DNA of 64,000 bases from a virus: the IMG/VR virus record IMGVR_UViG_3300045988_172415. One strand, written 5' to 3'. A model generated the notes under the pieces. The model did no database searches. It saw only the letters and a list, made by a program, of their open reading frames with translations, and was not told the origin of the DNA. Positions within the stretch are counted from its first letter, which is position 1; the number at the start of each line of letters is the position of its first letter. Both the position numbers and the translations under genes were made by a program. Shown here one piece after another: positions 32,906-56,311 of this stretch.

Positions 32906-34636
32906 GTGAAAACCAAAAACCTGTTGAAGGCAACGGTCGCCACGCTTGTGGCCGGTGCCATGGGTTTGGCTGGAGTTGGCTCCGCCATGGCGGCTGATAC
33001 TCGTGTTGACGCATCCAAGCTTGGTGAGGCTGCTCGTCAGACGTTGACCGTCGCTGCTAATGGTGATATTAGCAATCGCACGTTGAAGGCTGTGCCGCTC
33101 GCCTACTATTCGTATGCGCAGACTGATGGTACTAATATTACCGGCTTTGACCTGATTGACGCGGGCAAGGCTTCTGCCATTGCTGACGCACTGACTAAAG
33201 CCCATATTGACACCCAGTCCAAGAAAGACCAGACTGCCGGATACGACTATAATGCGTCCAATCCGATGGTGTGGGTCGTGCAGAATCTCCTTGATTCCGA
33301 GAACAGCCCGTGGGCTGGCAAGCTTCGTGACTTCATCGACCAGTTGAAGAACGAGGCCGCCGTCACCGGCGACAAGGGCACCGCGTTCGCCAAGGGCGCC
33401 GACGCCAAGCATATGACCGCATCAGTCCGTCCGGGCGTGTATGCGGTCGTGGACACCACCACGGCCGGTCAGGCGTCCATCGTCATGTTCAACGGCACCG
33501 GCATCGACGGCAAGACCACGTTGAAGAACGGCGACAAGACCTACACGCTGGGCACCGTGGACTATAAGGTGCATGACGCCGCAGTCAGGAAGGCTATCAC
33601 CTCTGTTGAGAATGGTGATGTGGATGAGAAAATCGGTGAGGACCATGAGGATGAGGGGGCTCGCCAAGCAGGGAAGAAATATTATGCGGTAGCCAAGACC
33701 TCCATCGGCAAGAAGGTCTCTTTCACGATGGGCGGCGCGGTGCCTGTTTGGACTGGCTACGACCATTATTATTATGCGCTCAACGATACGTATTCGGATG
33801 GTCTGACTTTCAACCCGGATAGTGTGAATGTCACTGTCGGTGGTAAGGCTTTGACTGCTGGCAAGGATTACAAGGTGACGACCGAGGCGGGCAAGTTCCA
33901 TATCCTGTTCGCCCCGACCGCTGATGGTTCTTCCGACATCATCGCCGCCAAGACCACGTTCCCGGTCGATGCGGAAGTGCTTGTCACTTATGACATGACC
34001 GTGAACAAGAACGCCCACGTGGACGGTGTTGACACCAACACGAGCGAGGTCGAATACTCCCATAATCCGAACACCGTCACCGACCATGAGAAGACTCCGG
34101 GCGACACCAACTACGTGTACGTCGGCAAGTTCACTCTGACCAAGACCGATACGAACAATGCTCCGCTCGCGGGTGCCGTGTTCAACATCAAGGATGCCAA
34201 GAGCAATATCGTCAAGTTCGTCAAGGTGGGTGATAACGAGTATCGTGTTGCCGACTCGACTGAGGCCGCTACCGCAAGCGCCGACATCACCACCACCGAT
34301 AAGAACAATGGCGTCATCACCTTGAAGGGCTTGTACGGTGCCTACACGGTGACTGAAACCAAGAGTCCGTTCGGCGGCAGCATTCTGCCGGAGTTCACTC
34401 TGACCGTTGGCGTGGCCCAGTCCAAAGACCATAACACCAGCACTTCGTCCCTCACCAAGTTCAAGGATGATGCCAACCATCTGGCCTCCAAGACCAGTGA
34501 CGATGGAGTGACCGTCATCAACGCCCGCAACATCGCTGACATGCCGAAGACCGGTGCGGTCTGGCTGTCCATCTTCGGCGTGATGACCGTCCTGTTGGCT
34601 GGCGCTTCCGCCCTGCTGCTTCGTCGCAAGGCGTGA
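32906..34636 (+). CDS. sortase-dependent pilus major subunit (LPXTG-like cell-wall anchor, MPKTG variant)
   Basis: GTG start with an RBS. Signal peptide, CnaB-type pilin E-box 'YGAYTVTETKSPFGG', and a C-terminal 'MPKTG' followed by a hydrophobic helix and 'RRKA'. Confidence 0.65.
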   Translation: MKTKNLLKATVATLVAGAMGLAGVGSAMAADTRVDASKLGEAARQTLTVAANGDISNRTLKAVPLAYYSYAQTDGTNITGFDLIDAGKASAIADALTKAHIDTQSKKDQTAGYDYNASNPMVWVVQNLLDSENSPWAGKLRDFIDQLKNEAAVTGDKGTAFAKGADAKHMTASVRPGVYAVVDTTTAGQASIVMFNGTGIDGKTTLKNGDKTYTLGTVDYKVHDAAVRKAITSVENGDVDEKIGEDHEDEGARQAGKKYYAVAKTSIGKKVSFTMGGAVPVWTGYDHYYYALNDTYSDGLTFNPDSVNVTVGGKALTAGKDYKVTTEAGKFHILFAPTADGSSDIIAAKTTFPVDAEVLVTYDMTVNKNAHVDGVDTNTSEVEYSHNPNTVTDHEKTPGDTNYVYVGKFTLTKTDTNNAPLAGAVFNIKDAKSNIVKFVKVGDNEYRVADSTEAATASADITTTDKNNGVITLKGLYGAYTVTETKSPFGGSILPEFTLTVGVAQSKDHNTSTSSLTKFKDDANHLASKTSDDGVTVINARNIADMPKTGAVWLSIFGVMTVLLAGASALLLRRKA

Positions 34637-34770: not shown

Positions 34771-35676
34771 ATGGGAGGGGTTTTGGGAAAACATACGGCG
34801 AAACCGAAAGGCTTGGGAAATCGAGCCATAGCGGGACTTCTCTGCCTAATCCTATCCGCCCTGTCCGGAACCATCCCATTCATTCTCATGATTTCGAACA
34901 GCAGCCAATCCAACCGGTTGACCGACTCCCACGCGCAAGCCGTGGAAAACACTGACGTGAAACGAATCGCCCAAGAGTATGCGGACGCGCAAGCCTACAA
35001 TCAACGCCTATACGAGGAAGGCCAGCCCATTCTTGGTGAGGCGGAAGACCCTTGGACGGGCGTCAACAAGTCCGAAACGGACAACACGTATCGGAAGCAA
35101 CTATCCACCCCCAAGGATGGGGTCATGGCTACCATCAAATATCCACGCTTGGGCATCAACCTGCCCATCCGGCATGGCACGTCGCAAAATGTGTTGGCCG
35201 CTGGAGCTGGACACTTATACGGTTCCAGTCTCCCCGTCGGTGGCAAGAACACGCATACTGTCATATCCGCTCACACGGGTTTGGCCGACCAGCTCATGTT
35301 CGACAAGCTGCGAGGCTTCGGCAGTGAAGCCAAAAAGGGAGACGTCTTCTATTTGATAACCGCCGGACATATGCTCGCTTACAAGGTCACGGATATTAGT
35401 GTGGTAGACCCATCCGACTTTTCTAAACTGAAAATCGTCGCCGGAAAAGACCTCTCCACACTATTGACCTGCACGCCATACGGCATCAACAACAAGCGAC
35501 TCTTGGTGACCGGCACGCGCGCCAGCATGCCACACCCCGCGCCCAAACCCGAAAACGCGCCGAAAGACCACACGAACCAATGGCTCATGCTGTACGTCGG
35601 CGGCTTCTGGCTTGCGGTAATCATCATCACCATTCTCATCATCCGTAGAAAAAACCACGCAAAGAAGGAACACTAA
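34771..35676 (+). CDS. class C (pilus-specific) sortase
   Basis: N-terminal TM, catalytic 'HTGL' His, 'TLLTCTPYG' Cys motif, and the C-terminal TM anchor typical of class C sortases. Confidence 0.8.
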   Translation: MGGVLGKHTAKPKGLGNRAIAGLLCLILSALSGTIPFILMISNSSQSNRLTDSHAQAVENTDVKRIAQEYADAQAYNQRLYEEGQPILGEAEDPWTGVNKSETDNTYRKQLSTPKDGVMATIKYPRLGINLPIRHGTSQNVLAAGAGHLYGSSLPVGGKNTHTVISAHTGLADQLMFDKLRGFGSEAKKGDVFYLITAGHMLAYKVTDISVVDPSDFSKLKIVAGKDLSTLLTCTPYGINNKRLLVTGTRASMPHPAPKPENAPKDHTNQWLMLYVGGFWLAVIIITILIIRRKNHAKKEH

Positions 35677-38600
35677 TGGGTATTCTCAAAAAGCATGTGG
35701 CACATCCGGTAGCATTATTGGCCGCAATCGCCACACTGGCATCCGGCCTGACATGCATGACCAATCCGGTAGCCTCTCCAAAAGCGCATGCGGACGAGTT
35801 GAAACCTGCGTATGCTACTGCGAAAATCGTTAAGAAAGCCGACGGTACGGGGCATGGCACGAGTTCGCAAACGTTCGTGAATTCGAAGAACGGGTTCGCC
35901 ACGGGCGATGATTCCCCTACCGATGGCGTGGTCGCATCCGGTGATACGGTCGAATATTCATTGACGTTGAACTTCAACGCGGCGGGCAAGCGTACCATCA
36001 ACGTGAAGTTCGACTTGGACGACGCGCCGTATTTGCAGACTGCTGACGGTGGTGGCTTCTGCCAGCCGGGACAACTCGTCACCGCGAAGAAAAACAGTGA
36101 CGGCTCCTGCTCCTACACGGTTCCAGCCGGTGGCGTGGAAACCATGACCCAAACCTTCTATCTGAAAGCAAAAGACACGGGAGGCTTGGTCAAGCCGGGT
36201 CAGATTCCGAAAATCGTCGTCGCCCGCGAAGGTGGAACGTCAACCACGTATCGTACGGATGAGCTGACTGTAGTATCCGCTCCGGCGGCTGACTTGGTCA
36301 TTGACAATGGCGGCAATCCGGTGAAAGGCCAATACTCGTATGAGCATCGTACTTATTGGAGTCAGAACACCGACGCGACCGGCGATTTCACTATTCGTGC
36401 CGACGCGTTGACCTATCCGGGTTATTCGTCCACGAAGGGCGCGTCCACCAGCATCGATTGGACTACCAAAGTGGATATTTCCGACTTCCCGCAGAACACC
36501 GTGTGGACTGTAGGCGGTCAGCGGATTACCCGTAACAGTGATAAAGAACAGTATCTGACCGTATCCAGTGGCAAGAACGGTGCGGCGGCGACAATCAGCT
36601 ACAGGATTCCCGCCGGAACCGACGCGCTCAAAAACATGAAAGAAGGAGACGTCAAATATTACGATGTCCACCTTGTTCCCGACGAAACCGTGTTCAGCGT
36701 CAAAGACGATAACGGCGACGCACTGTTGAACATGGGCAAAGGTGGAGAACCCGGCTGGAACATTGGACGGGACAAGAGCACCTACAACAAGGATACGGGT
36801 GCCCGCGTCGGCTACCCGTACGCGAATAATGACTGGTCACGAGCCATCATCCAACGGCTCAAGCCGACTCCAGCTGGCAAGATTCCACTGTTCGGCAAAG
36901 GACTGCAACGTCCTAACACTGCGTCCAAGACCATGTTCGACAAGGAGAATCTGACGTTCGACGCCGCCGAAGGCAAAGCCGACATCTACCATTACTATTC
37001 CGACGGTTCCGGCGACACCGTGTCCCGTGGAACGCAAGTCAAAACCATTTTGGAAATGTATGCGGCGAACGTTACGGCGGACAAGCTTAAAAACACTACG
37101 CCGACCATGCAGGACGAGTGGGATAATACGCGCATGCGGTGGGATGGAAGCTTGGAAGTCACCCAGAACGGCGCTCCGGTTTCCGACTACAAAGTTCAAT
37201 GGGATGATAGCAAAGACAATTGGCATGACGGGGAACCATCCGACACAGACGCTCCGAACGTCAAGAAGATTCGGGTGACGTTCAACCCCGACACTTTGAC
37301 TTTGGGAAAGGGTGCGCCGAACGTTCAGGTCACGTTCAACACGCTCGCCATAGCCGACGTGTCCAAAGGCAATGTGGAAGCTTTGGATACGCTGACCGCA
37401 TGGCTTACCGAAGACGATAAGGCGAGCGTCACCAATTGGGTGTGGATTGCCAAGCCGGTAGACCCGACCACCAGTATCGACATCAGTCTAAAAGCCTACG
37501 ATGGTGAAGGCAATCAAGTGTATGCGAACAACAGTTCCAATCACCCGTCCGGAAGCGCAGTCGATTTGACTCCCGGCATGCGAGTGGATTATACGGTCAC
37601 GGAACAATTGCGCACCATTCTCCTGTCCAATACGAGCATGACGCCGACCATCACGGTGCCGAAACCGAAAGGCTTGTACAATCCGACCTGTGATGATTCG
37701 TTCTGGCAGATGAAAGTGGACGGGAATAATCTCGTGTTCACGCCACGTTCCGGCAAAGTCACGCCGGAAGTAGACCGTATGGGGTCGGCCACTTTGCCTG
37801 ACCTGCATTTCAGTGGCATCGTATCCAATCTCGCCACCGGGACTGTGACCGCCAGTGCGAATATGAGCGTGGACGTTGACGAGAACGGCGCATTGCAAGC
37901 CCAAACCATCAAAAGCAATACGCCCAGCGTCCCATTCCCTGTCTCCAATGCGGAAACCAACAGTGGCATCATGCGTGTGAAGACCACGAAGGCTGAAATC
38001 AGTGACCCGCTTACTTGGGAGTTCAACGTGTACGGCAAGGGCGGCGGACATACCGGCACCATGGATAGCATGCTACTGCTTCCTGCGAATGGTGATGAGA
38101 AGTACGTGCAGGACAAGCTGGTCGAATATGAGCGTGGATACAGCAACTATCATGGCTCCTACGAACTGACCCAGCCCGTCACGGTCAATATGGACAATTC
38201 GACCAGTACGACCGTCTACTATTCAACCACCACCGGAAAGAAGTCGGATAATCCGGCTGACTACGAGTGGAAGACATGGGATGAATTGTCCTCCATCGAG
38301 AAGAAGAACATCATCGCCATCCGACTGACCAGCACAGTCGTCGCGTCCGACGATAAACTGTCCTATTCGGCGGTGAACGGCGCCATCACGCTCACCCCAT
38401 CCGACAATGTGAAAGACGACAAGTACACGCTGTGGCTTGGCCGTAACTATTATTCCGACGCTTCCGACAAACCGGCGGGCAACCAGCCGTGGCCTGACGT
38501 GGCGAAGGTAGTGGCCGGTAGCATCAGCGGCACCGTCTGGTGGGATAAGGATGAGAACACGCTCATCGGTGACAGTGAAGAACGTATCGAAGGAGTGGAA

Positions 38601-41054
38601 GTCACCCTCGGCAAGCAGGATTCAAGCGGCGGCTGGCAGGCCGTCAAAACGGTGAAGACCGACAAGGACGGCTACTACGAGTTCAACCTGCTCCACTCCG
38701 GCACCTACCGTACTTCGGTGAAACGCAACACTGGCACCAGTACGGGTGATGGCGTGCAGACGCAGGTCAAAACCTACTATGGCAAGCTCGAAAACGTGAC
38801 GAACACGCGAAGCTGGTCGAACAAAATCAAGTCCAACGCGAAAGACACGTCCGACGACATCCACCTAGGCATCGGCGCAGACCAGAAGAACGTGGACTAC
38901 GGGTATGCGAAACCAGACCCGAAAGCCACCGTGGACAAAACCGTCACCGGCACCAGTTGCACCGATACGAAATGCGTCATCAACTGGGATGTCAAAGTAC
39001 AGAATTCTGGCACTAGTCGTTTTGATACTTCCAGTGTCGTTTCTGACCGTATGAGCGCCGACGTGCATGATGTTTCCGCTACCGCCGGTACGGTTTCTAT
39101 CGAGTCTGGTGGTGCGAAGCAGGTTGCGACGAGTGGCGACCATAAGTTTGTGTTGACGAACGAGGGCTTGTTGTATGCGTGGGGTAACAACCAGTATGGT
39201 CAATTAGGTTTCAAGCCTGACACGACGAATACCGCTACCCCAACGAACGTGAACAAGCCGACCATCGTCAACGGTAGTTGGCTGAAAGTCGCCGCCGGTG
39301 GCAAGCATTCCGCCGCCATCAGCACGGACGGCCACTTGTACACGACTGGTTGGAACGGTAAAGGCCAATTGGGTACGGGTGATACGGATAATCGTGACCA
39401 GTGGACTCTAGTCGCAGAAGATAAGACGTTTGTTGACGTGGCGTGCGGCAACCAGTTCACTGTGGCGATAGCAAGTGACGGCACCTTGTGGGTGGTCGGA
39501 AAAGTCAGTTCCACCTCGTATTCAACGTGGACGCAAATCCAGTCGGGTAAAACGTTCACGCAGGTCAGCGCCAGCACGTACAGGTGGGTCGCGTTGACGT
39601 CCTACGGCGGTTGTGTGGTGGACGGCGACGAGTTTTTCTCTATTGGTTTCACGCAAGTTGTCGCCTCATTCGGCAACGCCTACGGGTTGACTGACGCGGG
39701 TACAGTGATAGTGCTCGTCGACGGAGGTGATAGCGGTATCGGCCAGTCCAATGTGTCTAATCTGAGGTACATCACCCGTATCGGTGGCGGATACAACACT
39801 TTCTACGCCATCGACAAGAACCAACACTTGTGGGCGGCTGGCTGGAATGGTGACGGCCAATTAGCGAACGGTAAGACCGGTACAGGCAGGTATTGGACCA
39901 ACGGCAGTACGAGCGGCAACGCGGATATTGTTTCCACGCCAATCGATACGGGCATTACCGCATCCGACGTTGCGGGCGGCGACCGTGACGTGCTCATTGT
40001 CGGCAAGCAGGTCATGATTGCGGGCTTCGACCCGTATGGTGACGGCAAGACGGGTGGCGCACGTTCCACCGGTTTGAAGGGAATGGTCGTATCGTCCGAC
40101 CCGACCGCCGTACCGGTCGAACCGTTGAGCGAGTCCACGGAGAAGGGGTTGACGACCCGCACGTACAATCTGCCGTATGCGATTGAGTCGGGCGGCTATG
40201 TCATCTACCATTTCACTGGCACCGTTGACCGTGAAACTGCGGATACTACCAAGTGGTCTCCAACTGAGAAAGACGAGTGGGTCAAGAAGAATACGAAGAC
40301 CATTCTCAACCAAGCATGGTTCACCTCCGAACACACGCCATACTCAGGCACGCCACATGCAAGCGGCAAAACCAAGCCGGACCCTCCGAACGCATCCAAA
40401 CTGGATACGAACACGAATGACGTGACCGGCAATCCGACATGCCGCACCGACACCGACTATACGGAGGAAGGACGCCAACACTGGTTCAGCACGTCCGATG
40501 AGGACTCCTGCGACCAAGTCGGCACCATCATCACACCAACCACCACCGCGAAGAAACTCGGTTCCATCAGCGGCCTGTATTGGGAGGATACCAACAAGAA
40601 CGGCATTCAAGATGAAGGTGAGAACACGCATTTCGCCGGTCAGACGGTCATTCTGACTGACGAGAACGGCAAACAGTTGGCAACCACCAAGACCGACAAG
40701 GATGGCAAGTACATTTTCGAACGTCTGGACGCGAACGGCAACAAATACCGTATCCAATTCACCAAAGTGAACCACCGGGACTTCACCACGCCGGATGTGG
40801 GAGACAAGACTCCTGCGACGGATGGAAGCTCCACTGATTCGGATGCTTACACGGATGAAGCCAACAAGCTGACCATCACCCTCACCCAAGATGCTCCAAC
40901 CAAGGAGCATGTGGATGCGGGTGTCCTGCCTGAAACATGGTTGGCGACCATGCCGCACACGGGCATGGGATTGCTGTTGCCGCTCCTCATGCTCGTCAGC
41001 ATCAGCGGACTCGTCGCGGCAATCATCCTCCTACGAAAGAAGGAAGAACAGTGA
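35676..41054 (+). CDS. giant cell-wall-anchored adhesin (putative pilus tip/ancillary adhesin) with RCC1-repeat β-propeller and SdrD-B/CnaB-like domains
   Basis: 1,792 aa. Signal peptide. RCC1 repeats ('LYAWGNNQYGQLG', 'LYTTGWNGKGQLGTGD', 'LWAAGWNGDGQLANG'). Two SdrD-B-like modules ('SGTVWWDKDENTLIGD...DKDGYYEF', 'SGLYWEDTNKNGIQDEGE...DKDGKYIF'). C-terminal 'MPHTG' followed by TM and 'RKKEEQ'. Confidence 0.7.
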   Translation: MGILKKHVAHPVALLAAIATLASGLTCMTNPVASPKAHADELKPAYATAKIVKKADGTGHGTSSQTFVNSKNGFATGDDSPTDGVVASGDTVEYSLTLNFNAAGKRTINVKFDLDDAPYLQTADGGGFCQPGQLVTAKKNSDGSCSYTVPAGGVETMTQTFYLKAKDTGGLVKPGQIPKIVVAREGGTSTTYRTDELTVVSAPAADLVIDNGGNPVKGQYSYEHRTYWSQNTDATGDFTIRADALTYPGYSSTKGASTSIDWTTKVDISDFPQNTVWTVGGQRITRNSDKEQYLTVSSGKNGAAATISYRIPAGTDALKNMKEGDVKYYDVHLVPDETVFSVKDDNGDALLNMGKGGEPGWNIGRDKSTYNKDTGARVGYPYANNDWSRAIIQRLKPTPAGKIPLFGKGLQRPNTASKTMFDKENLTFDAAEGKADIYHYYSDGSGDTVSRGTQVKTILEMYAANVTADKLKNTTPTMQDEWDNTRMRWDGSLEVTQNGAPVSDYKVQWDDSKDNWHDGEPSDTDAPNVKKIRVTFNPDTLTLGKGAPNVQVTFNTLAIADVSKGNVEALDTLTAWLTEDDKASVTNWVWIAKPVDPTTSIDISLKAYDGEGNQVYANNSSNHPSGSAVDLTPGMRVDYTVTEQLRTILLSNTSMTPTITVPKPKGLYNPTCDDSFWQMKVDGNNLVFTPRSGKVTPEVDRMGSATLPDLHFSGIVSNLATGTVTASANMSVDVDENGALQAQTIKSNTPSVPFPVSNAETNSGIMRVKTTKAEISDPLTWEFNVYGKGGGHTGTMDSMLLLPANGDEKYVQDKLVEYERGYSNYHGSYELTQPVTVNMDNSTSTTVYYSTTTGKKSDNPADYEWKTWDELSSIEKKNIIAIRLTSTVVASDDKLSYSAVNGAITLTPSDNVKDDKYTLWLGRNYYSDASDKPAGNQPWPDVAKVVAGSISGTVWWDKDENTLIGDSEERIEGVEVTLGKQDSSGGWQAVKTVKTDKDGYYEFNLLHSGTYRTSVKRNTGTSTGDGVQTQVKTYYGKLENVTNTRSWSNKIKSNAKDTSDDIHLGIGADQKNVDYGYAKPDPKATVDKTVTGTSCTDTKCVINWDVKVQNSGTSRFDTSSVVSDRMSADVHDVSATAGTVSIESGGAKQVATSGDHKFVLTNEGLLYAWGNNQYGQLGFKPDTTNTATPTNVNKPTIVNGSWLKVAAGGKHSAAISTDGHLYTTGWNGKGQLGTGDTDNRDQWTLVAEDKTFVDVACGNQFTVAIASDGTLWVVGKVSSTSYSTWTQIQSGKTFTQVSASTYRWVALTSYGGCVVDGDEFFSIGFTQVVASFGNAYGLTDAGTVIVLVDGGDSGIGQSNVSNLRYITRIGGGYNTFYAIDKNQHLWAAGWNGDGQLANGKTGTGRYWTNGSTSGNADIVSTPIDTGITASDVAGGDRDVLIVGKQVMIAGFDPYGDGKTGGARSTGLKGMVVSSDPTAVPVEPLSESTEKGLTTRTYNLPYAIESGGYVIYHFTGTVDRETADTTKWSPTEKDEWVKKNTKTILNQAWFTSEHTPYSGTPHASGKTKPDPPNASKLDTNTNDVTGNPTCRTDTDYTEEGRQHWFSTSDEDSCDQVGTIITPTTTAKKLGSISGLYWEDTNKNGIQDEGENTHFAGQTVILTDENGKQLATTKTDKDGKYIFERLDANGNKYRIQFTKVNHRDFTTPDVGDKTPATDGSSTDSDAYTDEANKLTITLTQDAPTKEHVDAGVLPETWLATMPHTGMGLLLPLLMLVSISGLVAAIILLRKKEEQ

Positions 41055-42976: not shown

Positions 42977-44206
42977 ATGTCTTGGGTTGTTGCCGACGAC
43001 CTGCCCTCAACCATTCTTTTCTCTTTCCCTAGTGAAGGAAGCATTAAAATCGTGAATGCGAGTCAAAGACGTAGAAGACGCCAACGCAGACTGCAACAAC
43101 GCTCGGATGATAAGTACAGGAAGCTCCACCGTTACATCGACTTCCAACAAACATTCGGATTCGACGCGCTCTACCAAGCCGCAAGAAAATGCAAACGCGG
43201 CGTCACATGGAAAAACACAGTGTTGAACTTCGACAATAGGCGTGCCGTCAACTGTTGGAAACTCGCCCAAGAATTAGAGGACGGCACATACAAGAAGAGA
43301 GCGCCAATCCGATTCGACATTCCCGAACGAGGCAAACTCCGCCACATCAGCGCGGTATCCTTCCGAGACCGGGTGGTGCAACGCGCCTTATGCGACAACA
43401 GTCTCGTCCCCATCGTGGAAAGCCAACTGATATACGATAATGCGGCAAGCCTACCGAAACGTGGAACATCGTTCGCCCGAAAACGGTTCGAACTACACTA
43501 TAAGCGGGCTTTGGGCAAATGGGAGCATCCGTATGCTGTCATCTTCGACTGTTCCAACTATTTCGGAAGTATCAGCTCCCAACGAGCGTTCGATATGATT
43601 TCCACCCTGTACCGGAGCATCGCCCGCACCGGACGGGAGAAGCAGGATGTGGAACGGATTCTAACCGTATTGAGAATCTTCGTATTGGACGAACCTCACT
43701 TGGGTTTAGGCAATCAGACAAGCCAAACCATGGCTATCTGGTATTTGAACAAGGTTGACCACTGGTGCATGTCACAAGGATTCTACGGACGGTATATGGA
43801 TGATGCCTACTGTTTCTGCAAGAATCGTGAACAGGCCGAACGTGTGCTGGCCGGTTACGAGCGGCATGTCAATCAATTGGGATTGCGGTTGAACAAGCGC
43901 AAGACCCGCATAGTGGACTGTCGCACCGGTCAACTCACATTCCTGAAACGCGTATACAGCGTACAGGATGACGGCAGTATTCTTATCCGCATGCACCATA
44001 AGGCGTTGCGTGCAAGCCGACGGCATGCGCGTAACCTTATCCGCTCATATGATGGCGTGCATGTGGGATTGCGGACAGTTCAGGATTCTTGGACGAGCCA
44101 TGAGAGCACACTGTCGGGTCTAACTCACCGTCGTGGACTGTGCGCTCGGGAGAAAGCGTGGTATCGGAGGCATTGTGAAATGCGGAAGCTGGCTTTTCAC
44201 CCGTGA
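42977..44206 (+). CDS. DGR reverse transcriptase
   Basis: RT motifs 'ISAVSFRDRVVQRAL', 'LGLGNQTSQTMAIWYL' (the DGR-specific GNxTSQ in place of the group-II QGxxSP) and 'YGRYMDDAYCF' (YMDD). The start codon is uncertain. Confidence 0.85.
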   Translation: MSWVVADDLPSTILFSFPSEGSIKIVNASQRRRRRQRRLQQRSDDKYRKLHRYIDFQQTFGFDALYQAARKCKRGVTWKNTVLNFDNRRAVNCWKLAQELEDGTYKKRAPIRFDIPERGKLRHISAVSFRDRVVQRALCDNSLVPIVESQLIYDNAASLPKRGTSFARKRFELHYKRALGKWEHPYAVIFDCSNYFGSISSQRAFDMISTLYRSIARTGREKQDVERILTVLRIFVLDEPHLGLGNQTSQTMAIWYLNKVDHWCMSQGFYGRYMDDAYCFCKNREQAERVLAGYERHVNQLGLRLNKRKTRIVDCRTGQLTFLKRVYSVQDDGSILIRMHHKALRASRRHARNLIRSYDGVHVGLRTVQDSWTSHESTLSGLTHRRGLCAREKAWYRRHCEMRKLAFHP

Positions 44207-53109: not shown

Positions 53110-53204
53110 CTAATAGTGGTAAAAATTTCCGAGTCGTGTGAATGCTTTTTGTATTTGCACGGCTTTTTGTTTTTTTGCGCTTTTGCGCTTTCTCTTAAAT
53201 ATGA

Positions 53205-53227
53205 TATACTGGAATTGTTCACACAAA
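53205..53227 (+). promoter_or_regulatory. conserved promoter/operator module copy
   Basis: 'TATACTGGAATTGTTCACACAAA', preceded by terminator-like T-tracts. Confidence 0.55.
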
Positions 53228-53246
53228 TATGAGAGAAAGAGCCACA

Positions 53247-53555
53247 ATGAACGAGTATTTCGCACGATTCGGAGCAGAGGACTACAACATCTTCCACAAC
53301 GGCAATGCCTCCTATGTCATGTTGCGCGTTGCGGACGAGAACATGACCTACTTCGCCTTGTTTGAGCACATCGAGGGTCATGCTGGCGTCGGCTGTAGGA
53401 TGTTCGACTCTCCGACTGAGGTGTTTTTGGATGCCGCCGTTGACGAGACGTGCTCCGACGAGCAGCTTGCCGACTTCGTTGGACAGCCTGACACCGCTTT
53501 CGTCCACAGTATCAATATCCGCAGGATTCTGTATCGCTCCGGACTTCTGAACTAA
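53247..53555 (+). CDS. small hypothetical protein (102 aa), paralog of 47524–47865
   Basis: Start chosen by alignment with the paralog (MNEYFARFGAEDYNIF...). Confidence 0.5.
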   Translation: MNEYFARFGAEDYNIFHNGNASYVMLRVADENMTYFALFEHIEGHAGVGCRMFDSPTEVFLDAAVDETCSDEQLADFVGQPDTAFVHSINIRRILYRSGLLN

Positions 53556-53610
53556 AACATGGGAATACGCCCGCAGGAAAATCATGTGGGCGTATTCCTT
53601 TTTTTTCGTA
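53556..53610 (+). terminator. rho-independent terminator
   Basis: Stem GGAATACGCCC...GGGCGTATTCC followed by TTTTTTTTCG. Confidence 0.55.
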
Positions 53611-53672
53611 TGGGCGGGGATTGCGTCTTCGTTTTGGCTTGGTTGCGTGTTGTGTTTTATCTCAACTTAGGC

Positions 53673-53694
53673 TATACTGGAATTGTTCACACAA
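53673..53694 (+). promoter_or_regulatory. conserved promoter/operator module copy
   Basis: 'TATACTGGAATTGTTCACACAA'. Confidence 0.55.
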
Positions 53695-53716
53695 GATATG
53701 CCGAGAAGGAGAAACC

Positions 53717-54682
53717 ATGGACAACGACGCAATCAACAGTCTTACCAAAAAGTGGACTGCCAACCTCGTTTACTGCTTCGAAGACTTCGACAATGAAACC
53801 CATTCACAACGACTGAGCGCATACATCGACCAGAAGCCCTTAGATAAATTCAAGGAAGCCAACCTAATCGAACTAAACAAGGAACGCGACCGTTGGAAGC
53901 TTACCAACAAGGGAATCGACCTGCTGGAAAGCATTAAGAACATCTACCAGAGTGGAAGAATATTCCCTCTCCCCCTACCGTTCCGCCACTACTACGTCAA
54001 CTGCAAACTGGAATACAACATGGAAGTCAAGGACGGAAACGTATACGACGGATTACGCGAAACCGTGTTGAAAGACCGGAGTCGGGACGTTCGCCGCAAA
54101 GTGGCCGAATATTTGGAATACAAGGGGAAAACTCAACTACAAGACCGCGACCAGCCTCGCTAAGGACAAAGACCCCGAACTACGCAAGCTCGCCGCAAAG
54201 CATACCGTTGCAAGCCTGTACTGGGAGGAAACGGATTACGACGTTATCCGCTACATGGTGGAAAACAAGCTGGCCGATAGGCTCTGCTTCGAGCATTGGG
54301 TGAAAAGCGATGATGAAACCATCCGCATCCTATCAGCACCGTTGGCGGAAGAAACGGACATAGACCCATTGCTGGACTCCCTCTCCGACGAATCCGCCAT
54401 CCAAGTCTTGTTTAATAATCCGGAATGGGTCAAAGGTAAGCGTGCCGTGCGCTTGTGGCGTCGCATGGGCGGGAAAACCGCCGTTGGATTATGTCCTTTA
54501 TGTGGGATGTTCCCGATTCTCTGATTGAGGAGTCGTTGGCGGAACCTCGTAATTGGCAAATCTCTTCTCGATTGGAGGAGTATAAGAAGGCGTTGCAGAC
54601 CGTGGCCCGTATGGAGCGCCTGTTCGCCAAGGGTAGCGAGATTAAACGCAAGATGCGTGCCCGTGCCGGTTTGTCTGATTAA
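53717..54682 (+). pseudogene. frameshifted paralog of the HEAT-repeat gene 51860–52801
   Basis: Three consecutive track ORFs (53621–54163, 54255–54524, 54455–54682) lie in frames 2, 0 and 2. Together they align colinearly with the intact paralog, for example '...MRDMPDSFINQAF...LEEYREAV' versus '...MWDVPDSLIEESL...LEEYKKAL'. This implies two frameshifts. Confidence 0.5.
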
Positions 54683-54689
54683 GGTTTGA

Positions 54690-54740
54690 CGGAGGGAAGG
54701 CGGGATGCTGTTTTGGTGTCCCGCTTTTGTTTTTTTGGGG
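54690..54740 (+). terminator. rho-independent terminator
   Basis: Stem GCGGGA...TCCCGC followed by TTTTGTTTTTTT. Confidence 0.4.
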
Positions 54741-54764
54741 TTTTGAGGTTTCACTCAAGTGTGC

Positions 54765-54787
54765 TATAGTGGAATTGTTCACATAAA
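54765..54787 (+). promoter_or_regulatory. conserved promoter/operator module copy (variant)
   Basis: 'TATAGTGGAATTGTTCACATAAA'. Confidence 0.5.
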
Positions 54788-54815
54788 GAGCGATAGGCAA
54801 AAAGGAGCACATAAC

Positions 54816-55076
54816 ATGTACGCAATCCACTACATCGGCGGCGCAATCAACGTCAAGAAAATGCCCAAAAAACAAGCAGCCGAATACGCCAAACAAATCA
54901 ACGACAACGCCCTCTCAAGCACCTTCCCCGAAAGCGTGAAACTCGTTCAAAGTCCCGAAGCCCGCACTATCATGCAAAACAGACTCTTCGCAAAAGACAT
55001 CTACCCCCGCCACAGCGACGTGTACGGCATGAGCATGGCTGAACTCGTCAACGCAGTCAACGAATACTGCTGCTGA
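54816..55076 (+). CDS. small hypothetical protein (86 aa)
   Basis: Start after RBS AAAAGGAGCACA. Confidence 0.4.
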   Translation: MYAIHYIGGAINVKKMPKKQAAEYAKQINDNALSSTFPESVKLVQSPEARTIMQNRLFAKDIYPRHSDVYGMSMAELVNAVNEYCC

Positions 55077-55119
55077 CCGCGCTGACACCTCCCGTACGTG
55101 ACCGAAAAGGAACAACGAA

Positions 55120-55506
55120 ATGGCAAGCAAACAACACGGGGAACGAATCGAAGAACTGCGCAAGGACATCGAAACCGGCGTGAAGGAGCTGCGAAACTCC
55201 GGCACTTGGCAGCGCTACCTCGATTTCATGGGACGTTTCCACCAATATAGCTGGAACAACATCCTGCTAATGCTCATGCAATCGAACGGCAACTCATCGC
55301 TGGTCGCCGGATTCCGCCAATGGCAGACACGCGGGCGCGTCGTGCGCAAAGGCGAACACGGCATGAAAATCTTCGGCTTCAGCACCAGAACCGTCAAGGA
55401 CGAAGACGGCAACCCACAGTTAGACGAGAACGGCGACCCTATCCAAAAAGTCTGGTATCCCATCTTGACGGTGTTCGACGTATCCCAGACCGACCCCATT
55501 GTATGA
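55120..55506 (+). CDS. ardC: ArdC N-terminal-domain-only protein (antirestriction ArdC/DUF1738-like ssDNA-binding domain)
   Basis: 'YLDFMGRFHQYSWNNILLMLMQ', 'GFRQWQTRGRVVRKGEHGMKIF' and 'VWYPILTVFDVSQTD' match the ArdC N-domain pattern. The ORF ends at 128 aa, overlapping the next promoter module. No metalloprotease C-domain follows. Confidence 0.55.
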   Translation: MASKQHGERIEELRKDIETGVKELRNSGTWQRYLDFMGRFHQYSWNNILLMLMQSNGNSSLVAGFRQWQTRGRVVRKGEHGMKIFGFSTRTVKDEDGNPQLDENGDPIQKVWYPILTVFDVSQTDPIV

Positions 55507-55529
55507 TATACTGGAACCGTCCACACAAA
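55507..55529 (+). promoter_or_regulatory. conserved promoter/operator module copy (variant)
   Basis: 'TATACTGGAACCGTCCACACAAA'. Its -10 overlaps the TGA stop of the ardC-N gene. Confidence 0.5.
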
Positions 55530-55563
55530 CAAGGGTTTGACCCATACAGAAAAAGGAAAAAGA

Positions 55564-55926
55564 ATGTACTCGAAAATCAGCGAAGACACCTACCGGAAAC
55601 TCATTGACAAGCTCGTCAAAATCCCATACGTGACCGGCGCACACGCCACCCACGCCATCTTCGGAGACGGAATCGAAGTCGCATTCCAATGCCCATACAT
55701 GGGCAAGATGTTCGAATACTATCTTGTGGCAGACTCGCAACATAACGGCAGACGTTCCTACCGTTGGAGTGGAGGAGTATACACGGTTTCGGTCGAGCAT
55801 TGGACTTTCGACGACGGGGAATACGCTCCCGTGGATTTGCCGTCGCACAAGCTGGAATCGTTGAACGTTGACGGACTGTATGACGCGATTGTGTCCGATT
55901 TAGACAAGGCCATGAGGGAATTGTAG
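55564..55926 (+). CDS. hypothetical protein (120 aa)
   Basis: Start after RBS AAAAAGGAAAAAG. Confidence 0.4.
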   Translation: MYSKISEDTYRKLIDKLVKIPYVTGAHATHAIFGDGIEVAFQCPYMGKMFEYYLVADSQHNGRRSYRWSGGVYTVSVEHWTFDDGEYAPVDLPSHKLESLNVDGLYDAIVSDLDKAMREL

Positions 55927-55936
55927 GAAAACGAAA

Positions 55937-56311
55937 ATGCGATTCACCGACGGTAGGGAAAAGCTGGAAATTGAAATCCACGAAGGTCAGCATTCTTGGG
56001 ATACGACGGTAGGATTCTTCGACCATTTGACGGCTCCCATTGTGAATGGGACTCGTCAGGCGGGAAACGTTCGCACTCTACTGACGAACGTGTACAACAG
56101 GATTCTAGGCATGTCCGGCTATCCCGCACCGGAAGCCGATACTCGGGCAATCTACACCATCACCGACTTGGCTGGTAACATTGTCGGGGAAGGTTTTTTC
56201 GCTTCGTCCGACAATCCGGACAACATGTATTGCATCGGTTGCGGTTGTCTGCTAACCGACGAAAACGAGAATCCGTGCGGGGACACCGGTTGGTGCGATG
56301 ACTGCTACTGA
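55937..56311 (+). CDS. hypothetical Cys-rich protein (124 aa, C-terminal CxxC...CxxC)
   Basis: ORF with 'CIGCGC...CGDTGWCDDC', suggestive of a zinc ribbon. Confidence 0.4.
   Translation: MRFTDGREKLEIEIHEGQHSWDTTVGFFDHLTAPIVNGTRQAGNVRTLLTNVYNRILGMSGYPAPEADTRAIYTITDLAGNIVGEGFFASSDNPDNMYCIGCGCLLTDENENPCGDTGWCDDCY

Follow-up and report, generated by a model that had tools for sequence, protein, structure and literature searches.

The locus described here raises the question of why a gene for an ArdC-like anti-restriction protein stops inside the promoter of the gene that follows it. It is part of a stretch of 64,000 nucleotides (nt) from the IMG/VR virus record IMGVR_UViG_3300045988_172415, in the following referred to as the window, and consists of an open reading frame (ORF) of 128 codons, which starts with ATG at 55120 and ends with TGA at 55504–55506. 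An initial annotation, made from the sequence alone, had described the product as a free-standing N-terminal domain of ArdC and had offered two explanations, namely that the insertion of a promoter module truncated an ancestral ardC or that the ORF encodes a deliberately minimal protein that coats single-stranded DNA (ssDNA). From the comparison with related loci it appears very probable that the 128-amino acid (aa) gene is instead an ArdC gene truncated by a deletion of about 600 bp, which extends up to a pre-existing promoter. The features that are needed for this argument are the following:

55120–55506, plus strand: truncated ardC, encoding residues 1–127 of a 284-aa protein, then Val and TGA; complete ArdC-N domain
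55497–55500, no strand: deletion junction (cat/t); on the left ardC codon 127, on the right the 5' edge of the downstream promoter motif
55499–55532, plus strand: 34-bp promoter/operator motif of the next unit (TTGTATGA TATACT GGAACCGTCCACACAAACAA), −10 element at 55507–55512; pre-existing
55564–55926, plus strand: 120-aa ORF of unknown function, the gene served by the module at 55504; found in 23 relatives with 81–99% identity

The 128-residue ORF and its two-domain relatives

As regards the N-terminal domain, the initial annotation was correct. The 128-aa protein matched the Pfam family ArdcN (PF08401) with an E value of 2.5e-13 and 50.7 bits (cut-off 22.6) at profile positions 8–116 of 123, as well as PHROG 7245 ("anti-restriction protein") with an E value of 4.7e-9, and both the YSWNN and the GFRQWQTRGRVVRKGEHG motif were found in it. 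In the annotation of the Joint Genome Institute (JGI) it is already named ArdC. According to a family-profile alignment, the protein ends at approximately residue 131 of ArdC from plasmid R388, which is the border between N-domain and linker, and it has the properties of a stand-alone ArdC-N protein, i.e., one ArdcN domain, a length within about 120–145 aa, and an end shortly past the VFDVSQTD block. The start codon is preceded by an AAGGA ribosome-binding site. The stop codon TGA presents the first three bases of TGATATACTGGAA (55504–55516) and at the same time the "TGn" of the extended −10 element (TGATATACT), the hexamer of which is TATACT (55507–55512). The length of 128 aa and the stop within the −10 element of the next cassette, both of which had been noted initially, are thereby borne out by the coordinates.

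The C-terminal metalloprotease domain, which had been described as absent, left no trace in Pfam, PHROG, and tblastn analyses across the 64 kb. Pfam revealed no peptidase domain of the IrrE/M78-like type (PF06114 or PF18818) in the 128-aa ORF and no peptidase match in the downstream ORFs, the best tblastn hit of the C-terminal half of an intact relative against all 64 kb had an E value of 0.28, so that the peptidase half was not found, and the 594 bp that are deleted in the window gave no blastn match to any part of it. The ORFs between 55564 and 56311, which had been proposed as a place to look for a remnant of the protease, contain none according to Pfam, PHROG, and tblastn, and do not continue the gene in frame. 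A split gene or a protease domain moved elsewhere in the window is excluded by these searches.

Relatives were reached by a search with the 128-aa protein and subsequent retrieval of the DNA, whereby the matches continue past "...SQTDPI" into the linker. An uninterrupted two-domain ardC was found in ten related loci, eight of them on IMG/VR contigs of 114–205 kb (L017–L024) and two from metagenomes (L025 and L027). The intact protein has a length of 284 aa (277 aa in L024), and Pfam assigns to the 284-aa protein an ArdcN domain and a Peptidase_M78 (IrrE-like) domain with an HETAH motif. Residues 1–127 are 100% identical between the window protein and the proteins of L017, L018, L019, and L025, and the genes are located at syntenic positions, which together demonstrate a common descent of the 128-aa gene with the two-domain genes. 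A direct phmmer search for solved ArdC structures gave no match, and it needed the family profile to align both domains to the R388 ArdC crystal chains 6i89 and 6sna (E = 5.8e-8).

The 90% cluster of the intact protein comprises 372 member sequences on contigs of up to 227 kb. PLSDB contains 2,506 plasmids with a match, which in 1,867 cases extends over 80% or more of the 284 aa; among the best 150 representatives, most are 270–330 aa long and about 9% are shorter than 180 aa. Proteins listed in PLSDB/RefSeq as "ArdC-like ssDNA-binding domain-containing protein" from actinobacterial and Firmicute plasmids share 42–46% identity with the intact relatives over 94–99% of the length and have the same ArdcN plus M78/IrrE-like architecture, whereas the window allele corresponds to the first 127 residues only. 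All orthologues with an undisrupted gene encode two domains within 277–292 aa. The ratio of non-synonymous to synonymous substitution rates (dN/dS) in the intact relatives amounts to 0.13 for the N-domain and to 0.11 for linker and C-domain; the peptidase half, where it is retained, is under purifying selection.

In alignments with blastn and MAFFT, the window is interrupted by a single clean gap, which is located between 55499 and 55500. It corresponds to 6381–6974 of L017 (594 bp), with flanks of about 95% identity, and amounts to 601–602 bp in comparison to L025 and L019 and to 908 bp in comparison to L001–L004, which contain an additional insert of about 340 bp. Gone from the window are codons 128–284, the stop codon, the terminator consisting of a hairpin and a T-run, and the T-rich sequence that precedes the next −10 element. 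The downstream motif, in contrast, is retained as a whole, the junction being located at its first base, with its native T-rich upstream region lost together with the ardC terminator. To the right of the junction, module and 120-aa gene are arranged alike in every ardC-positive relative, and in the eight ardC-positive IMG/VR loci a distance of about 110 bp separates the stop of the intact ardC from the module that follows it. Since the module already precedes the 120-aa gene in the relatives and about 600 bp have been lost from the window and not moved elsewhere, the truncation goes back to a deletion and not to the insertion of a module. The alignments show the deletion with its endpoints, the intact ancestral architecture, and the prior existence of the module. 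The two ends have at most 1–4 nt (CAT/T) in common at the junction, past which the frame reads att-gta-TGA; the stop inside the promoter came about by coincidence, as one of three possible frames past the junction.

The course of events may be envisaged as follows. The ancestral locus would have comprised a unit of module, 86-aa ORF, ardC (284 aa), and terminator, followed by a second unit of module and 120-aa ORF, whereby the ancestral ArdC would have combined the ssDNA-binding ArdC-N domain with an HExxH metallopeptidase domain of the IrrE/M78 type, the two being connected by a linker. A deletion of the illegitimate kind, about 600 bp long and involving microhomology of no more than the 1–4 nt mentioned above, would have taken the sequence from ardC codons 128–284 up to that before the next −10 element. 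Codon 127 would thereby have come to abut the 34-bp module of the following unit at its first base, where the TG of the extended −10 element happens to yield a stop codon.

Turnover of ardC and the fate of the truncated product

In order to describe the locus independently of ardC, IMG/VR was searched with the downstream 120-aa protein, which resulted in 23 loci. An intact ardC is located upstream of the 120-aa gene in 8 of the 23 loci. In 13 loci there is no ardC and the 86-aa ORF is directly followed by the 120-aa ORF, with no module between them, and in 2 further loci without ardC a terminator and a module are present at this position. Because 15 of the 23 sampled loci do not contain ardC, we regard ardC, its terminator, and the following module as an accessory cassette. 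In addition, at least 12 independent ardC lesions were found besides that of the window. The lesions recorded, including those in more distant homologues, are the following:

+1 G frameshift at about codon 171: L001–L004
Internal deletion of about 370 bp: P0002/L026
+1 frameshifts at codons 110, 126, and 127/128: P0004, P0031, and P0038, respectively
Frameshift at about codon 213: P0039
Double frameshift: P0067
C-terminal rearrangement: P0066
Truncation after codon 170: P0029, RefSeq B. adolescentis protein
IS605-family TnpB element after codon 41: L006/L007 (L006 8219–9667)
Second TnpB element at codon 125–126: L043/L044 (L043 3377–3399, corresponding to window 55496 onward; L059 1685–3068)
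Flotillin 5' end fused to ardC residue 115 onward: P0073
Nonsense codons in more distant homologues: L005 (2603–2605, 68% identity) and L034 (about 3160, 46% identity)
In-frame deletion in a more distant homologue: P0074

IS605-family TnpB elements entered ardC twice and independently of each other. In P0073 (215 aa), the first 53 residues are flotillin/SPFH-like and are joined to ardC at a common "IPIL", whereby the peptidase half is kept and the N-domain is lost. The nonsense codon of L005 is located at the linker position equivalent to the window junction, and the peptidase part remains there as a separate ORF; the sister contigs L028–L031 are intact (GAG) at this codon. The window allele is one rare member of this population of decaying alleles, and we infer that its truncation is an ordinary step in the decay and turnover of a dispensable accessory gene rather than the origin of a designed minimal protein.

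Promoter, ribosome-binding site, start codon, and every conserved block of the N-domain are untouched in the truncated gene, and the 128-aa product is presumably still made from these unchanged signals and would fold as a self-contained N-domain. The best understood relative is ArdC of the conjugative IncW plasmid R388 (PDB 6I89/6SNA; Gonzalez-Montes et al. 2020, PMC7213743). The window protein shares the PF08401 domain and the location on a conjugative plasmid with it, and the full-length relatives match both of its domains including the HExxH motif and the region of the downstream Glu ligand. The window protein, however, lacks the linker and the entire metalloprotease domain, has a low sequence identity to R388 ArdC, and originates from a Gram-positive actinobacterial host. 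In R388 ArdC, residues 1–134 constitute the ssDNA-binding N-domain and residues 135–150 the linker, and the protease-dead variant E229A was fully active in conjugation into P. putida (PMC7213743). Complete natural ORFs of 123–145 aa with ArdcN only have also been found (P0027, P0022–P0026, P0208, and P0252), and the contig of P0027 encodes RecT as well. They have the same domain content and length as the window protein and likewise end 6–10 residues past VFDVSQTD, but share only 29–39% identity with it, occur in phage-like contexts, and are complete genes, not recent deletion derivatives. Since the protease activity of R388 ArdC is dispensable and natural N-only homologues exist, the truncated N-domain may still bind ssDNA. 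We consider it probable that the 128-aa protein is made and binds ssDNA, while a measurable evasion of restriction by coating incoming ssDNA is a more doubtful prospect.

The explanation that competes most seriously with this one is that of an inert pseudogene remnant, i.e., of a 128-aa ORF without consequence in a locus that is heading toward full loss of ardC. It has a considerable, though less than even, chance of being right and differs from our explanation solely in denying a residual role in ssDNA binding or anti-restriction. The absence of ardC from 15 of the 23 loci, the many disrupted alleles of all kinds, the occurrence of the allele as a singleton, and the proposed position of the R388 DNA groove between the domains all fit with an inert remnant. 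The complete domain, the intact expression signals, the lack of non-synonymous changes, the existence of stand-alone homologues, and the dispensability of catalysis in R388 speak against it, but are not decisive.

A number of points weigh against our reading and have to be set beside it. The positively charged groove that is the proposed DNA site of R388 ArdC lies between both domains (PMC7213743), and because the groove is interdomain, loss of the C-domain could by analogy impair DNA binding although catalysis is dispensable. The N-domain of the window shows 8–9 synonymous and 0 non-synonymous differences to L017, L019, and L025, a pattern that may have arisen before or after the deletion. 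An AlphaFold model of the 128-aa protein was of low confidence, with a predicted local distance difference test (pLDDT) score of 69 and a predicted template modelling (pTM) score of 0.34, and a Foldseek search with this model ranked 6i89 and 6sna first, but weakly (E of about 0.1); neither is used as evidence here. The ardC gene is plainly dispensable in the plasmid family. The exact 128-aa sequence is on record in one or two contigs, namely the window's own source and an identical contig of the European Nucleotide Archive (L042), which amounts to one source. Furthermore, L042 stops exactly 54 nt beyond the junction, its last 55-mer beginning at 55499. Overall, the functional statements are weaker than the deletion origin, which nothing contradicts.

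Lesions at the linker and alternative origins of the allele

The start of the linker is marked by a 15-nt direct repeat (GACCGACCCCATCGA), which is present in two copies with a 21-nt period and encodes TDPIDKE-TDPIE (L017 6364–6420; window 55484–55499). One repeat unit has been lost in frame in L024, P0064, and P0073, in the first two by a 21-bp slip, and the repeat also contains several of the frameshifts and breakpoints. The window deletion, the TnpB insertion of L043, and two +1 frameshifts (P0031 and P0038) all fall at codons 126–128, and within about 25 bp (codons 122–128) there are six mechanistically different events, comprising the 600-bp deletion, the TnpB insertion, the two +1 frameshifts, the L005 nonsense codon, and the in-frame 21-bp slip. 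L043 and L044 are the closest relatives of the window, with 99.4–99.8% nucleotide identity, and their TnpB insertion is located 4–6 bp from the window's deletion endpoint, a proximity that is unexplained. The possibility that the deletion is a repair scar, left by TnpB cleavage after the excision of an L043-type element, was rejected on account of the geometry: if the orientation of the element is read correctly, the guide would match the N-domain side, which is still present in the window; what the window lost is the opposite side, and it also keeps 4 more ardC bases past the L043 insertion point.

The lesion catalogue is biased, since most of it was obtained with an N-domain query. A mutational hot spot formed by the repeat and a C4 run is plausible and presents the simplest reading of the linker cluster. 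It appears unlikely that the linker is a recurrent breakpoint through which the lineage loses the peptidase domain and is left with an ssDNA-binding domain that stands alone. If selection and not a hot spot were the cause, some hosts would be at a disadvantage with the peptidase half of ArdC, for instance because it is costly or recognised by a defence system, and the N-domain alone would suffice for anti-restriction.

Closely connected with this is the suggestion of a selected minimal anti-restriction protein, for which loss of the peptidase was adaptive and in which the N-domain alone coats incoming ssDNA; we give it little weight. It could draw on the truncation exactly at the domain border with promoter, ribosome-binding site, and all conserved N-domain motifs intact, on the dispensable protease activity of R388 ArdC and the known natural ArdcN-only proteins, and on the four independent disruptive lesions at codons 126–128 in the close family together with the L005 nonsense codon in a family of 68% identity; the N-domain is also spared by other lesions (L001–L004 and P0002). 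However, other alleles have the N-domain destroyed or keep the C-domain alone (L006 with its insertion at codon 41, P0004, P0073, and the P0072 ORF), most relatives are without ardC, the lesion sample carries the bias mentioned above, and the cluster is located on the direct repeat and the C4 run, the same repeat having given rise to the in-frame slip in L024 and P0064. A conserved single-domain state was not found among the orthologues of related elements, and the intact form is dominant. The "deliberately minimal" protein of the initial annotation finds no support in an allele that comes from a single source and whose relatives with identical N-domain are full length, with a dN/dS of 0.11 in the peptidase half.

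An assembly artefact, in the form of a chimeric metagenome join, is very unlikely. A search of IMG/VR with the junction sequence gave no match. The junction is identical in two assemblies, one represented by the 129-kb contig of JGI, taken to be the source of the window, and the other by the SPAdes contig L042 of 62.9 kb (ENA ERZ1742823 NODE_201), the latter being 100% identical to the window and corresponding to window 53120–55553. The end of L042 at 54 nt past the junction indicates a branch of the assembly graph there, which a chimeric join might explain, but a real polymorphism would likewise give a branch at that point, and the 1–4 nt shared at most are far below any k-mer length. The end of L042 hints at a product of the k=55 graph, as would be expected if a second allele with another base before 55499, e.g., the undeleted "...gtcatTTGTATGA", co-occurred in a mixed population.

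The insertion of a promoter module as a mobile promoter cassette, by which the initial annotation had explained the truncation, can practically be dismissed, since, although the modules are repeated about 20 times, coincide with the borders of cassettes that vary among relatives, and are therefore recombinogenic, the same layout of module and 120-aa gene is found in all eight ardC-positive IMG/VR loci and about 600 bp including C-domain and terminator are absent from the window rather than shifted. What stands of that proposal is the truncation of a two-domain ancestor, as seen from the identical residues 1–127; the promoter insertion does not, as the module existed before.

Promoter modules and the plasmid backbone

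The following features of the window flank the truncated gene and the 120-aa ORF:

54696–54738, plus strand: terminator-like hairpin and T-run that close the preceding cassette; 15-pair stem, then GTTTTTTTGG
54757–54790, plus strand: promoter/operator module (TGCTATAGTGGAATTGTTCACATAAA; extended −10) of the unit of 86-aa ORF and ardC; motif family of the 34-bp regulon motif of pMP7017; scored as TTGAGG-16-TATAGT with upstream TG
54816–55076, plus strand: 86-aa ORF of unknown function, first gene of the unit
55937–56311, plus strand: 124-aa ORF with a Cys-rich C-terminus; also downstream of intact ardC in L019, L020, L022, and L025

The 120-aa and the 124-aa ORF have no match in Pfam or PHROG. 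An HEGQH sequence at residues 15–19 of the 124-aa ORF was considered as a peptidase remnant and rejected as a chance HExxH, since this ORF also accompanies intact ardC. Because the ardC terminator is lost, transcription from the promoter at 54762 now likely reads through into the 120-aa and the 124-aa genes. In L001 (10693–11033) as well as in L002–L004, about 340 bp are inserted between the ardC terminator and the module, which are found in none of the other relatives. The segment contains inverted repeats (ctctggttgaaac...gtttcaaccagag) and repeated "caaccaga" words and could be a small non-autonomous insertion.

The module (TGnTATAnTGGAAnnGTyCACAnAAA) occurs at about 20 sites of the window, including the following:

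Minus strand: 1064, 4087, and 26877
Plus strand: 47470, 47967, 48904, 49915, 50253, 51812, 53202, 53670, 54762, 55504, 57644, 58774, and 60752

Its 13-nt core was observed 16 times versus 0.44 expected occurrences, and a 22-nt version 16 times versus 0.01 expected. Up to 27 kb the modules are on the minus strand and from 47 kb on they are on the plus strand, in both cases co-oriented with the genes, and each copy is located 25–50 nt upstream of a ribosome-binding site and start codon, often right after a T-rich terminator tail. For the Bifidobacterium conjugative megaplasmid pMP7017, a 34-bp regulon motif (AWAYATGY-TATACT-GAATATGTCCACATAAAAWA) has been described, which overlaps mapped −10 elements, is present in 19 copies, and is predicted to drive about 24% of the plasmid genes; it was interpreted by the authors as a transcription-factor site (PMC10832533). 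Like this motif, the window module (TGnTATAcTGGAAnnGTyCACAcAAA) overlaps the −10 element, is located upstream of ribosome-binding site and start, and occurs in many copies on a syntenic backbone, and the 22-nt pattern was found 6 times per 41 kb in pMP7017. It differs in the spacer (GGAA versus GAAT) and in small deviations of the consensus, and the comparison is one with a distant relative, since the backbone protein shares about 47–54% aa identity and the transcription starts were mapped for pMP7017 itself. Judged from its sequence, the module is the published 34-bp motif of the pMP7017 family and a predicted promoter/operator.

Synteny breaks to the relatives coincide with modules, e.g., window 53225/53694 joins 54723/54760 in L020–L024 and L027, and the modules look like recombination points for the gain and loss of cassettes. 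In the establishment regulons of the p576/pLS20 family, conserved regulatory sequences are common to the upstream regions of ardC and of other early genes (PMC8708921). The ardC of the window is likewise placed among small genes, of the accessory or "establishment" type, that each have the same upstream promoter/operator sequence, although the regulatory sequences and hosts are not related. This analogy suggests that the genes with a shared module are co-regulated and possibly expressed transiently after transfer.

With respect to the element itself, gene content and gene order indicate that the window comes from a relative of pMP7017. A 587-aa protein encoded beside dnaB has 47–54% identity to the proteins at the same position of pMP7017 and of B. 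longum megaplasmids, in a similar gene order, and DnaB, ParA, a large minus-strand block, and this syntenic protein make up a pMP7017-like backbone in the window. Scans for tRNA/tmRNA and Rfam families gave no match in the window, so that there is no tmRNA here like that reported for pMP7017. The 90% cluster of the window protein includes, in truncated form, a RefSeq protein encoded on a contig of 221 kb ("ArdC family protein [Bifidobacterium adolescentis]"). Contigs of 217–227 kb recur; the host is probably B. adolescentis.

A phage origin was rejected in spite of the listing of relatives as viral in IMG/VR. Megablast against 50,697 phage records gave no match, tblastn matches to phages had identities of 31–38% only, none of the ten large ORFs tested belonged to a phage structural family, and the backbone is pMP7017-like instead. 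The IMG/VR contigs of L017–L024 and L063–L085 (104–217 kb) are catalogued as viral genomes; their backbone, with DnaB, ParA, a large ATPase block, pilin, and synteny to pMP7017, looks like that of a megaplasmid of about 220 kb, and they may have been misclassified.

The cargo of the window comprises, besides DnaB and ParA-like ATPases, a SpaA-type pilin, a 1,792-aa RCC1/SdrD surface protein, and flotillin; further genes encode a reverse transcriptase, a GNAT protein, and an RNase T-like exonuclease. The SpaA-type Gram-positive pilin backbone protein (32906–34636, plus strand) and the 1,792-aa surface protein with RCC1 repeats and SdrD-B/Cna-B-like domains (35676–41054, plus strand) are plasmid-borne adhesion/pilus cargo, like the surface proteins reported on pMP7017. 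The reverse transcriptase (42977–44206, plus strand; 409 aa; RVT_1, PHROG 1423) has generic reverse transcriptase and DRT/UG classes as best PADLOC matches, and around it no group II intron RNA was found with Rfam and the neighbouring ORFs gave no match to a defence family.

Taken by itself, the truncated allele matters little, as it is a rare deletion form of a well-known plasmid anti-restriction gene. It presents, however, a natural "domain deletion" construct beside isogenic full-length alleles, and it bears on the sufficiency of the N-domain, which was left open by the work on R388, where the catalytic residue alone had been inactivated. The published 34-bp motif is conserved across the megaplasmid family and marks the borders of shuffled accessory cassettes, and ardC undergoes heavy turnover in this plasmid population of gut commensals through presence and absence, TnpB insertions, frameshifts, and deletions.

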